Below are positions 30,358 through 33,816 of a stretch of 64,000 nucleotides of DNA, piece after piece. Both the position numbers and the translations under genes were made by a program. The stretch covers positions 2,811,103 to 2,875,102 of the forward strand of contig CAWJET010000001.1 in the NCBI GenBank assembly GCA_963842085.1. The letters run 5' to 3'. The notes under the pieces are model-generated. The model was not told where the DNA came from and made no database searches. It saw only the letters and a list, made by a program, of their open reading frames with translations. The DNA comes from an uncultured delta proteobacterium (GTDB lineage: Bacteria > Desulfobacterota > Binatia > Binatales > Binataceae). How positions within the stretch are numbered: position 1 is the first letter of the stretch; every line of letters begins with the position of its first letter.

Positions 30358-31410
30358 GTGACGAGGAAGATGCAGCATTCGAGGGCGCGGATCATCATCG
30401 ATGGAGCGGTTGCCGGGATCATCGGCGCCCTGGTTGTCGCCCTCTGGTTTCTGATCTTCGACGTAATTCGCGGTCACGCGCTTGAGACGCCGGCCCTGCT
30501 GGCGGCCACGATTCTGCACGGCTCGCACAATTACGAAGTCCTTCACGGGCTGAAGCTGCTGGCGCTGGAATACTCGCTGCTCCACTTCGCCGCCTTCATC
30601 GCGTTCGGCATCGCCGGAGGATTGCTGCTCGAAGCGTGCGAGAGCGAGTCGTCGCTGCTCTTTTCGCTGGCGATCTTTTTCGTCGCCTTCGAAGTTTTCT
30701 TTATCGCGGTCGTGCTGTTCCTGGGGCCGAACGTGATGGCGGAGCTGACCTGGTGGGGTATCATCGTCGGCAACCTGCTCGCCACGGCCGCGATGCTGTC
30801 GTATTTCTTCTGGCGGCATCCTGCCCTCGCGTTCAATCTGCTGGGCGGCTGGATTACGGTCGCGCGCGAAGGCGTGACCGCCGGACTGGTGGGCGGCGTC
30901 GTCGTCGCCATCTGGTTCATGTGCTACGACTTCGCCGCGGGCAATTCGTTTCACACGCCGGCGATTCTTGGTGCGATGGTCTTTGGCAGCGCGAGCGTAA
31001 CCAGTGGCATCCACGCGACGCTGCCGCTGGTGCTCGGCTACTCGATCCTGCATTTCTTTGCGTTCGTCGTGTTCGGGCTGGCGCTGGCGGTTTTGCTTGC
31101 TGCATCGGAATGGGAACCGTTCATGCTCCTCGGCGCGCTGCTGCTGCTTGCAGTGTTCGAGGTATTCTTTGTCGGATTCGTTTCGCTGATCGATGCGTCA
31201 GCGCTCGAAGCCCTGGGATGGTGGAAAATCGTAGCGGGAAACATCCTGGCGCTGATCGCGATGGCGACGTACTTCATCCGCGGCCATCACGGACTCGGTA
31301 TCAAACTGGTTGAGCGATGGGCGATGCTCGACCACGAGGGCGCCGAGATGGGCGATCTGCCGCCCGCGCCGTCCAACCACGAGCCCGACAATCATCCATC
31401 GCATCTTTGA
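30358..31410 (+). CDS. Polytopic membrane protein of unknown function with internal tandem duplication
   Basis: Residues ~15-170 and ~175-330 are clear paralogous repeats (…LHGS/…TSGIHATLPLVLGYSILHFFAFVVFG versus …LHFAAFIAFGIAG…). Each ends with FEVFF(I/V) and a WWGII/WWKIV helix, and there is a His-rich C-terminal tail. Confidence 0.55.
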   Translation: MTRKMQHSRARIIIDGAVAGIIGALVVALWFLIFDVIRGHALETPALLAATILHGSHNYEVLHGLKLLALEYSLLHFAAFIAFGIAGGLLLEACESESSLLFSLAIFFVAFEVFFIAVVLFLGPNVMAELTWWGIIVGNLLATAAMLSYFFWRHPALAFNLLGGWITVAREGVTAGLVGGVVVAIWFMCYDFAAGNSFHTPAILGAMVFGSASVTSGIHATLPLVLGYSILHFFAFVVFGLALAVLLAASEWEPFMLLGALLLLAVFEVFFVGFVSLIDASALEALGWWKIVAGNILALIAMATYFIRGHHGLGIKLVERWAMLDHEGAEMGDLPPAPSNHEPDNHPSHL

Positions 31411-31417
31411 GAGCCGG

Positions 31418-32215
31418 TTAAATTCCAAGCACGTCGCGCATCGTGTAGAGCCCCGGCTTGCGGCTTACCAGCCAGCCTGCCGCACGCAGCGCGCCGCGTG
31501 CGAGCGAGTCGCGGCTCTGCGCGCGATGAATCAGCTCGAGGCGCTCGCCCTGACCGCCGAAAATCACGGTGTGATCGCCGACCGCGTCGCCCGCGCGCAT
31601 CGCGAGCACCGCAATCTTGCCGTCGGGCCTGATGCCCGTGATTCCTTCGCGGCCGTAGACCGCGTTGGAGGCGAACTCCACGCCGCGTGCCGACGCGATC
31701 GCCTTGCCGAGCGACAGCGCGGTGCCGCTGGGCGCGTCGATCTTGGTGCGATGATGAATCTCGAGGACTTCGGCGTCGAAGTCGGGAAGGATCGCGGCGA
31801 CTTCGGCGACGATCTTGGCAAGCACGTTGACTCCGATGCTCATGTTGGGCGCGATCACGGTGCGCGTCTTCTGCGCCAGTTCGCGCGCGCGGGTTTCCAT
31901 CGCGGGTGTAAAGCCGGTCGAGCCGATCACGATCGCGGCTCCGGCTTTCGACGCAATTTCGAGATGCTCCAACGAGGCGGCGGCGTTCGTGAAGTCCAGC
32001 GTGACAGTGTCGGGCTTTGCGAGCGACGCGTAGTCGTCGGTGATTTTCACACCGAGCGTGCCCACGCCGGCGAGCTCGCCGGCGTCGGCTCCGATCGCGC
32101 CGATGCCGTGCGCTTCGAGCGCGCCGACTATTTTATGCGCCGGCTCGCGCGACGCGAGCGCGACCAGCAGCCGGCCCATCCGGCCCGCTGCTCCAGCCAC
32201 GATTAGATTAGCCAT
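31418..32215 (-). CDS. dapB: 4-hydroxy-tetrahydrodipicolinate reductase
   Basis: An N-terminal Rossmann motif VAGAAGRMG and the DapB core (EVLEIHHRTKIDAPSGTAL). Confidence 0.9.
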   Translation of the reverse strand: MANLIVAGAAGRMGRLLVALASREPAHKIVGALEAHGIGAIGADAGELAGVGTLGVKITDDYASLAKPDTVTLDFTNAAASLEHLEIASKAGAAIVIGSTGFTPAMETRARELAQKTRTVIAPNMSIGVNVLAKIVAEVAAILPDFDAEVLEIHHRTKIDAPSGTALSLGKAIASARGVEFASNAVYGREGITGIRPDGKIAVLAMRAGDAVGDHTVIFGGQGERLELIHRAQSRDSLARGALRAAGWLVSRKPGLYTMRDVLGI

Positions 32216-32268
32216 CGCAATTCACTCTGCCCGCGTTACGCGGGCGCGATGCGGACGCTATTGCTGTA

Positions 32269-32535
32269 TCAGGAAGCCGGAGCCTCGGCCGCCGCCGCTT
32301 CAGCCGCGGGCGCTGCCGCCGCTTCTGCCGCCTTGCCGTGCTTGGCCTTGAAGTGTTCGTCGCACAGGCTCGAGGTGCCGTGGCGATGCTTGCGGCATTT
32401 CTCGAAGGTGCACGTTTTGTAGCGCGCCTTGGGCATCTCGCCGGCTTTCCAAAGCCGAAAATGCTGTCGGCAGTAACCCTTGCCGACCGCCTCGCGCGCG
32501 CAATCTTTCGCTTTGCAGTTTCCCTTGTTCGCCAT
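32269..32535 (-). CDS. Small Cys/His-rich protein with duplicated C-x4-C-x9-C-x2-H-F zinc-ribbon-like motif and Ala-rich tail
   Basis: Two tandem units (NCKAKDCAREAVGKGYCRQHF and TCTFEKCRKHRHGTSSLCDEHF) are followed by AAEAAAAPAAEAAAAEAPAS. The start was trimmed to MANKGN. Confidence 0.45.
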   Translation of the reverse strand: MANKGNCKAKDCAREAVGKGYCRQHFRLWKAGEMPKARYKTCTFEKCRKHRHGTSSLCDEHFKAKHGKAAEAAAAPAAEAAAAEAPAS

Positions 32536-32623
32536 GAATCCCTTCTTGGAAGCCGCTTCCCGACGCAAGCGCCGAAAATCGCGGCCGAGCAATTCATCTA
32601 CAATAGTGTGTGCCGCCGGTGCT

Positions 32624-33781
32624 TCATAGAGGGTGGGAATCAATCATTCGCAGTGAAAGTGCCAACGCTGCCATTGCGAGCGTGGCTGTCAGCGCGACCT
32701 CCATGCTTGCGCGCGGGCTTACGTCGGCGATCGCATGGCCCATTATCCAGGGCGCGACGATCCCGCCGAGCGCGCCGCCCGCCACTACGATCGCAGTCAT
32801 CCTGCCGACCTCGGCCGGGAAGCTGGCGGCGCCAATCGCGATCATGTTGGGGAAGACGGGGCCGTAGCCGAAGCCGATCAGAAACACAGCCGATGCCGCA
32901 AGGCCGCCGGCCGTGGGCGCCGCGATCAACATCACCAGCGCAGCGGAAGATAGCATAGAAGCCAGCATCGTGAATTGCGGCAATGCGATGCGATGCCCCA
33001 ATCGTCCGCCAAACGCCCGCCCGCACACCAATCCCAGCCAATAGAGCGAGACGCCCGACGACGCGAGCATCGGGCCGAGCGCGCCCGCCGTGCGCAAGTA
33101 GAGAAAGAGCCACGCGCCAATCCCGATTTCGGCGCCGACGTACAGGAACATCACTGCGCTGATCGCCCAAATCAGCGGTCGCGATAGCATCTTCAGAAAT
33201 CCGTGGCCGATGACCGGCGCCGTTCGGACTTCGATTGCTGCGCTAAGGCCTAAGCGAAACGCGATTGCGGCACACATGATCGCGCCGCCGCCGAACACCC
33301 ACCAGTACGGCACCCGGGCTGCGAAGGCGGCGCTGACCATCAGCGGCCCGAGCAGCGCGCCGACGCCGAACAGCACGTGCAGGTAGTTGAGCGCGGAGGC
33401 GAGCCGCTCGCGATTCAGCTCTACGATGAGCGCATTGGCGCCGATGTCGATGCCGCCATTGGCGACGCCGATCACAAATCCGGCCGATAGCAGTCCAGTA
33501 AGGCCACGAGCCACTGCGAGCCTCGTCAGCCCGGCCGTGAACAGCGCCATCGCACCGACGAGGATCTTCTGCGCGCTCATTTGTTGATTGATCTCGCCGG
33601 CGATCAGCACCGATATGAAATAACCGGCCGACGCGGCGCTGACGATCAATCCGGCGCGCTCGATCGGCAGATGCGTGGTACGAGAAATCTGGGGGATAAA
33701 GGGGCCGAGCCAGCCACTATTGATGCCCACCATCAGCAGGCACGAATACGCCAGCCGGGTGATCGTTCGCTCGCGGCTCAT
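32624..33781 (-). CDS. MFS transporter
   Basis: Twelve predicted TM helices with MFS-like loop motifs. The Arg-rich 150-aa N-terminal extension in the ORF track was removed. Confidence 0.8.
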   Translation of the reverse strand: MSRERTITRLAYSCLLMVGINSGWLGPFIPQISRTTHLPIERAGLIVSAASAGYFISVLIAGEINQQMSAQKILVGAMALFTAGLTRLAVARGLTGLLSAGFVIGVANGGIDIGANALIVELNRERLASALNYLHVLFGVGALLGPLMVSAAFAARVPYWWVFGGGAIMCAAIAFRLGLSAAIEVRTAPVIGHGFLKMLSRPLIWAISAVMFLYVGAEIGIGAWLFLYLRTAGALGPMLASSGVSLYWLGLVCGRAFGGRLGHRIALPQFTMLASMLSSAALVMLIAAPTAGGLAASAVFLIGFGYGPVFPNMIAIGAASFPAEVGRMTAIVVAGGALGGIVAPWIMGHAIADVSPRASMEVALTATLAMAALALSLRMIDSHPL

Positions 33782-33816
33782 CAACCGGCCGCCATCCAAT
33801 GTCCCGACGTGCAACG

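Follow-up and report, generated by a model that had tools for sequence, protein, structure and literature searches.

The window analyzed here is a stretch of 64,000 nucleotides (64 kb) from contig CAWJET010000001.1 of an uncultured member of the Binataceae, and at positions 32269..32535 (minus strand) it holds the gene for a small basic protein that, judged by its sequence, belongs with the small VegA-like proteins annotated 'vegetative protein', a family whose hallmark is a pair of Cys/His fingers. We consider it reasonably probable that this is a two-zinc protein, most likely DNA-binding, that serves as a housekeeping factor, be it a nucleoid-associated protein or a global regulator. Nucleic-acid binding had been one of two functions offered in a preliminary description of the locus, and it is the better supported by the data, through homology to fingers associated with HNH and GIY-YIG nucleases. 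The two-finger family is named in databases, though functionally uncharacterized, and represents no new kind of system; the window gene is an ordinary member of it and no discovery taken alone, so that the family matters more than the gene.

An open reading frame (ORF) of 88 codons was found exactly where the preliminary description had placed a basic protein of 88 amino acids (aa). The coding sequence (32269..32535, minus strand) runs from ATG 32535..32533 to the stop TGA 32271..32269, is backed by translation, homologues and codon pattern, and has the predicted product MANKGNCKAKDCAREAVGKGYCRQHFRLWKAGEMPKARYKTCTFEKCRKHRHGTSSLCDEHFKAKHGKAAEAAAAPAAEAAAAEAPAS. Searched as a single sequence, this protein had 157 homologues at E ≤ 1e-3, and those nearest to it are named Candidatus Binataceae, phylum Binatota. 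Codon substitutions were compared at four homologous loci: against the loci of 97%-identical relatives, codons 1–51 held seven synonymous and two amino-acid-changing differences, and the corresponding counts for more distant loci were 12/9, 16/10 and 21/12, a pattern that indicates purifying selection. The ORF at 32269..32535 is a genuine, conserved gene under strong constraint. A longer ORF of 124 aa, starting from TTG 32643, was rejected, as a 1-nt indel relative to the related loci L098 and L100 shifts the upstream frame. We take ATG 32535 as the start because of this broken upstream frame and because the end of gpsA in other genomes lies only 5–25 nt before a MANKG-type start; the ATG is also preceded by a Shine-Dalgarno-like GAAGGGA (32539..32545).

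Finger 1 (C7–G32; 32440..32517, minus strand) has the pattern C7-x4-C12-x9-C22-x2-H25-F26-x3-K30, with C7, C12, C22 and H25 as putative zinc ligands and a helix (23–31) that bears R23, R27, W29 and K30. Finger 2 (C42–K68; 32332..32412, minus strand) reads C42-x4-C47-x10-C58-x2-H61-F62-x3-H66, with putative zinc ligands C42, C47, C58 and H61 and a helix from residue 59. Its x10 is a one-residue insertion relative to the family, where x9 spacing in both fingers is the rule (128 of 133 homologues, as 107+17+4; x10 in five). The preliminary description had given both copies the identical spacing C-x4-C-x9-C-x2-H-F-x3-K, which is right for finger 1 but not for finger 2, with its x10 and a final His instead of Lys. 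The duplication itself, which it had also proposed, is borne out: hhalign aligned finger 1 with finger 2 at a probability of 97.3% (E = 2e-11), and the internal duplication is therefore real, both fingers having arisen from it. Metal binding by the duplicated module is a prediction.

Ligand conservation was examined in an alignment of 24 Binataceae sequences and in a broader one of 134, reaching down to ∼31% identity. All eight putative ligands (C7, C12, C22, H25, C42, C47, C58 and H61) were invariant in the 134 sequences, as were W29 and R38, and nearly invariant positions were Y21, K19, G32, Y39 and K49. Of these, R38 and Y39 lie in the linker between the fingers (residues 33–41, EMPKARYKT; 32413..32439, minus strand), and 112 of 133 homologues have 16 residues between the His of finger 1 and the Cys that follows it. 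Additional His residues (RKHRHG), to which attention had been drawn earlier, are present but not conserved, with H50, H52 and H66 differing among close homologues.

Six-frame translation of the window matched the pattern C-x4-C-x9/10-C-x2-H-[FYW] only in the two-finger ORF (twice) and in an antisense shadow (once), and the same scan on shuffled windows gave 0.01 matches per window, which puts the motif well outside chance. The antisense match lies opposite finger 2, where the plus strand reads C-x4-C-x10-C-x2-H-F (CLALKCSSHRLEVPWRCLRHF; 32339..32401) within a shadow ORF (32249..32422, plus strand). It arises in part because of codon complementarity, in that the sense Cys codon TGC, read antisense with a shift of one base, yields His (CAY), and sense His yields Cys; the remaining two Cys were put down to coincidence. 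We take this motif to be a shadow-ORF curiosity and no gene.

Structure was modeled with AlphaFold2 on the 134-sequence alignment, for a mean predicted local distance difference test (pLDDT) score of 69.8 (finger 1 ∼83, finger 2 76 and tail ∼52); an earlier alignment of 24 close sequences had given 59.6. Each finger was modeled as a short hairpin followed by a helix (23–31 and 59–72) that starts directly after the third Cys, so that C-x4-C lies on the hairpin, the third Cys immediately precedes the helix, and the His belongs to the first helical turn. With C-x2-H modeled at the N-terminal end of the helix and C-x4-C on a hairpin, we describe the predicted fingers as treble-clef-like rather than as zinc ribbons. 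Zinc ribbons share the set of four Cys/His ligands in ∼20–25 residues, but present them on two CxxC knuckles of beta-hairpins, and the label 'zinc-ribbon-like', under which the protein had been introduced, does not fit the modeled arrangement. No relative was found in the PDB, the single sequence giving only chance uPAR matches at E > 0.3 and the profile none.

The evidence that most directly suggests a function is the relation of the fingers to nucleases. The window protein matched PHROGs profiles for HNH endonucleases, namely phrog_5351 (E = 1e-6, residues 5–65 on profile positions 7–71 of 171) and phrog_1271 (E = 1.6e-6, residues 3–64 on positions 36–100 of 361), and its relatives matched HNH-endonuclease PHROGs down to E = 2e-14. 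By these alignments the two-finger unit in its entirety is the counterpart of the N-terminal, non-catalytic part of phage HNH endonucleases, and the nuclease part is absent: Pfam found no HNH, HNH_3 or HNH_5 in the window protein even at E ≤ 10. Among 21 long multi-finger relatives scanned with Pfam, six had an HNH, HNH_3 or HNH_5 domain and one a GIY-YIG domain, C-terminal to the fingers. Foldseek against viral models likewise returned actinophage HNH endonucleases (E from 2.5e-3 to 0.1). The relation to phage nucleases is visible at the profile level only, because 50,697 phage genomes contained no match to the window core or to the protein P0301 in pairwise tblastn. The ligand spacing and a post-helix G-x-L/M-P motif recur in multi-finger arrays such as P0121; unlike the phage endonucleases and the bacterial multi-finger HNH or GIY-YIG proteins, the window protein has no nuclease domain, has a low-complexity tail, and is chromosomal, syntenic and vertically inherited.

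The finger spacing had seemed unfamiliar at first sight, but C-x4-C-x9-C-x2-H is that of Pfam PF24906 (Zf_WRKY19), a 24-residue finger of plant WRKY19-type proteins, with which finger 1 agrees exactly. Residues 7–25 of the window protein matched this model at 14.5 bits (E = 0.031), below its cut-off of 27 bits, and 26 of the 134 family members matched it at E ≤ 0.01 (best 8.5e-8); several of the long multi-finger relatives did so at 27–52 bits. The model describes one finger only, whereas the window protein has two fingers and a tail. Pfam also gave a weak sub-threshold match of the window protein to WRC, a plant C3H domain; NCBIfam and PADLOC scans of the protein gave none.

We searched 1.84 billion representatives (50% identity level) with a profile of the Binataceae core and obtained 2,712 matches at E ≤ 1e-3, which split into small two-finger proteins and long proteins with 3–11 finger copies. 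A diverse profile retrieved 1,471 small-homologue clusters (90% clustering) at E ≤ 1e-5. The small homologues span Binatota, Myxococcota and other former 'deltaproteobacterial' lineages, with organism names that include Myxococcaceae, Hyalangium, Vitiosangium, Archangium, Anaeromyxobacter, Oligoflexia, UBA10199, a Nitrospira metagenome-assembled genome (MAG) and unclassified 'Deltaproteobacteria'. The family is thus large (more than 1,400 small members and thousands of finger-bearing relatives) and conserved in at least two phyla. Among the 382 small members that we analyzed the median length was 90 aa. No whole-protein Pfam or NCBIfam model for the two-finger family was found, and our literature search found nothing on it.

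Many homologues (Myxococcus sp., Pyxidicoccus, Corallococcus/Citreicoccus and Hyalangium) bear the RefSeq/PGAP name 'vegetative protein'. One of them, P0100 ('vegetative protein [bacterium]'), is 71% identical to the window protein (E = 1e-27); a profile that includes the window core retrieved 'vegetative protein' entries of Deltaproteobacteria, Myxococcaceae and Pseudomonadota MAGs at E ∼1e-22, and the RefSeq 'vegetative protein' of Myxococcus sp. RHSTA-1-4 belongs to the same set of 90% clusters. The window protein fits the family in size and composition (88 aa against ∼70–120 aa, a basic core, and a C-tail of the Ala/Pro-rich kind). With the VegA-like proteins of Myxococcota it shares a length of ∼80–100 aa in that group, two C-x4-C-x9-C-x2-H fingers, the invariant Trp, the R-Y linker, the basic core and an Ala/Pro-rich tail; it differs from them in that finger 1 reads KAKDCAREAVGKGYC instead of the signature CKRPYRAKGYC, and, as a protein of the Binataceae branch, in the insertion in finger 2 and in having no Lys-rich N-terminal extension. 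We take the database name to derive from vegA of Myxococcus xanthus, a gene reportedly described by Komano, Franceschini and Inouye in 1987 as vegetatively expressed and as having 'homology to histones'. A position of vegA near the protein S genes (ops/tps) was rejected, as no such genes lay within 10 kb at a Myxococcus locus.

Charge and tail composition are also features of the family. Core residues 1–68 of the window protein hold 18 Lys and Arg against six Asp and Glu (net charge about +12), and the ligand-to-ligand core C7–H61 has a net charge of +8; the family median for the core is +10 (382 small members). The low-complexity Ala-rich C-terminus noted earlier is indeed present, as residues 69–88 (AAEAAAAPAAEAAAAEAPAS; 32272..32331, minus strand), with 14 Ala (70%), three Glu, two Pro and one Ser, and is predicted to be disordered. 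Family C-tails consist of 54% Ala, 16% Pro and 8% Glu among other residues, and Ala plus Pro made up at least 50% in 230 of the 254 tails of at least 8 aa. Lys- and Ala-rich N-terminal extensions that exceed 12 residues occur in 200 of the 382 small members. Four members (P0177, P0213, P0216 and P0238) have extensions of 40–55 residues rich in Lys, Ala and Pro (e.g., KKKPAKPAAKAAAPKAAAKADAEPAAEKPAKAAKAAKAPKKAAAP) that resemble DNA-binding tails of the histone-H1 type or HU extensions; the window protein has none.

The gene lies between dapB and a transporter gene, as first described and as confirmed by the Pfam matches DapB and MFS_1. The dapB gene (4-hydroxy-tetrahydrodipicolinate reductase; 31418..32215, minus strand; Pfam DapB_N and DapB_C, PF01113/PF05173) is 53 nt downstream, and the MFS_1 transporter gene (32624..33790, minus strand) is upstream; other neighbors in the window are DUF1054 and GFA. 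In all Binataceae loci examined dapB is downstream of the small gene, as it is not in the other lineages examined, and the two genes are probably co-transcribed, with dapB a neighbor rather than a functional part. The usual Binataceae order is gpsA, two-finger gene, dapB, and two more distant lineages have the tight gpsA junction as well, there without dapB downstream. The window, across its 64 kb, and the loci of its closest relatives have no gpsA; those relatives have a divergent 272-aa ORF upstream of the small gene, and an IS1595 transposase gene is nearby in L098. Elsewhere the small gene lies between genes for an HtrA-like protease and a SpoU methylase (Myxococcaceae) or near a response-regulator/HD-GYP gene (UBA10199-like genomes). 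No mobile-element or defense context shared between loci was seen, and the setting is that of a housekeeping gene.

We favor DNA binding because the two-finger unit is homologous to modules that stand beside two unrelated types of DNA nuclease, HNH and GIY-YIG. We infer zinc binding because the Cys3His sets are invariant. Each finger would hold one structural Zn2+, with two ligands from the Cys-x4-Cys of a short beta-hairpin and two from the Cys-x2-His that opens an alpha-helix. The basic helices and the linker would contact DNA, with side chains of the R23/R27/K30 type on the side of the helix away from the metal site, and the spacing between fingers would be fixed by the conserved linker (E-M/L-P-K-x-R-Y-K). 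The Ala/Pro/Glu tail would be a disordered appendage. The small protein would then be a DNA-targeting module without a nuclease, inherited vertically and probably expressed constitutively as a housekeeping DNA-binding factor that is either nucleoid-associated or a global regulator. There is a functional analogy in Ros/MucR: these small zinc-finger proteins of bacteria are DNA-binding and serve as global regulators associated with the nucleoid. They are not relatives: they have a single C2H2/C3H site in a larger globular domain, plus an oligomerization domain, and we detected no similarity of the window protein to them in sequence or fold.

Several points weigh against a housekeeping DNA-binding role. 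That the nuclease-associated fingers themselves bind DNA is a reading of their domain architecture; the ligand geometry is predicted, from an AlphaFold2 model of only moderate overall confidence; and the tail of the window protein is neutral to acidic (three Glu, no Lys), unlike DNA-binding tails of the histone-H1 type. No neighbor was found to be conserved in all of the lineages compared, so that context gives no direct functional clue, and the link from the database name to M. xanthus vegA is tentative. A more far-reaching version of the same idea, which we put forward tentatively, is that these proteins form an unrecognized class of bacterial chromatin protein, in which Myxococcota, Binatota and related lineages domesticated the DNA-recognition module of a homing endonuclease to give an abundant nucleoid-associated protein with zinc fingers, whose disordered tails (Ala/Pro-rich, and in some members Lys/Ala-rich) would modulate DNA compaction.

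Among the alternatives, the fingers might instead bind RNA or a protein partner such as the ribosome, RNA polymerase or another housekeeping complex, making the protein a small zinc-dependent adaptor or regulator. Small basic CCCH-type fingers elsewhere bind RNA or proteins, the Ala/Pro tail is more like flexible linkers than DNA-binding tails, and the neighbors in some lineages have to do with translation or RNA: rsfS, rlmH and a TRAM/tRNA-U5 methyltransferase gene at locus L095, yidC and jag (KH/R3H) at L094, and the SpoU methylase gene of Myxococcaceae. Yet the only fused catalytic domains found are those of DNA nucleases, and neighborhoods vary by lineage with none pointing to a specific partner, so we consider this rather unlikely. 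We doubt more strongly that the protein regulates transcription specifically at its own locus, acting on the adjacent gpsA (glycerol-3-phosphate and phospholipid) and dapB (lysine and diaminopimelate), despite the recurrent junction of 5–25 nt with gpsA in Binataceae and two more distant lineages, the adjacency to dapB throughout Binataceae, and a conserved hairpin just upstream of the dapB start; gpsA is missing from the window and from the closest relatives' loci, dapB is not beside the gene outside Binataceae, and the neighbors in Myxococcaceae and UBA10199-like lineages are unrelated.

The alignment with the N-terminal part of phage HNH endonucleases, with the catalytic part missing, would also be expected of a decayed homing endonuclease left without its nuclease, or of an immunity or competitor protein for one, with no housekeeping role. 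This is improbable in the face of synteny and purifying selection across Binataceae and across Myxococcaceae, the conservation of a family-specific tail and linker, the uniform length (∼90 aa) of more than 1,400 small members, and the lack of shared mobile-element neighbors and of PADLOC matches. Least probable of all, and by our estimate very improbable, is a chaperone or storage protein for zinc or another metal, the second function offered in the preliminary description. Eight potential ligands and the extra H50, H52 and H66 speak for it, but the extra His are not conserved, Cys makes up only six of the 88 residues with no MxCxxC/CxC clusters, and no metal transport or homeostasis genes are linked. 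Moreover, the ligand spacing is fixed, and W29, Y21, R38 and numerous basic residues are conserved, which speaks for a binding module whose metal site is structural; the module is homologous to nuclease-associated fingers.

The analysis gives the family a testable description, namely two duplicated Cys3His fingers, treble-clef-like in the model, of a type common to the non-catalytic parts of HNH and GIY-YIG nucleases. If DNA binding and a nucleoid role are true, a zinc-finger type would be added to the few known classes of bacterial chromatin protein, and the family would be an example of a mobile-element targeting module turned housekeeping protein.

Upstream of the gene a conserved non-coding block of ∼96 nt (32536..32631, minus strand; it includes CACTATTGTAGATGAATTGCTC) hardly differs between the window and L098/L100 and contains a -10-like TATTGT (32600..32605) in addition to the GAAGGGA; beyond it the similarity is lost and the upstream genes are unrelated. 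The block is probably a lineage-specific promoter and 5' untranslated region (UTR) of the two-finger gene. A consensus scanner found no sigma-70 match for the gene, and its 5' UTR folded no better than shuffles (z = 0.1). Downstream, the 53-nt spacer between stop and dapB holds a GC-rich hairpin, GCCCGCG-UAA-CGCGGGC (32229..32245, minus strand), with a 7-bp stem and a UAA loop, ending 14 nt before the dapB ATG. Folding of the 70-nt stretch around it gave a free energy of -26.1 kcal/mol (z = -2.3), and the stem is kept in L098/L100, where a C-to-U change preserves pairing as G-U. The hairpin is not a classical terminator because it has no T-run, and a scan for a terminator of the two-finger gene found none; it could give dapB and the two-finger gene unequal expression levels, or occlude the ribosome-binding site of the former.

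The slot upstream of the two-finger gene varies within Binataceae (L004, L001 and L098 compared), with gpsA and a 263-aa Cys-rich ORF in most genomes and the MFS gene in the window, which suggests a local rearrangement hot spot. The 263-aa ORF, seen before gpsA in the relative's locus L004 (4190..4981, plus strand), has several CxxC pairs at its start (…CEWCGAKH…CQECGF…CPQC…CPAC…) and is another uncharacterized protein of the same operon-like cluster in some Binataceae. Right downstream of dapB, on the opposite strand, the window has a 350-aa multi-pass membrane-like ORF (30358..31410, plus strand) with no Pfam match at E ≤ 1e-3, and a 342–346-aa ORF, likewise without a Pfam match, stands at the same place in L001, L007 and L098.
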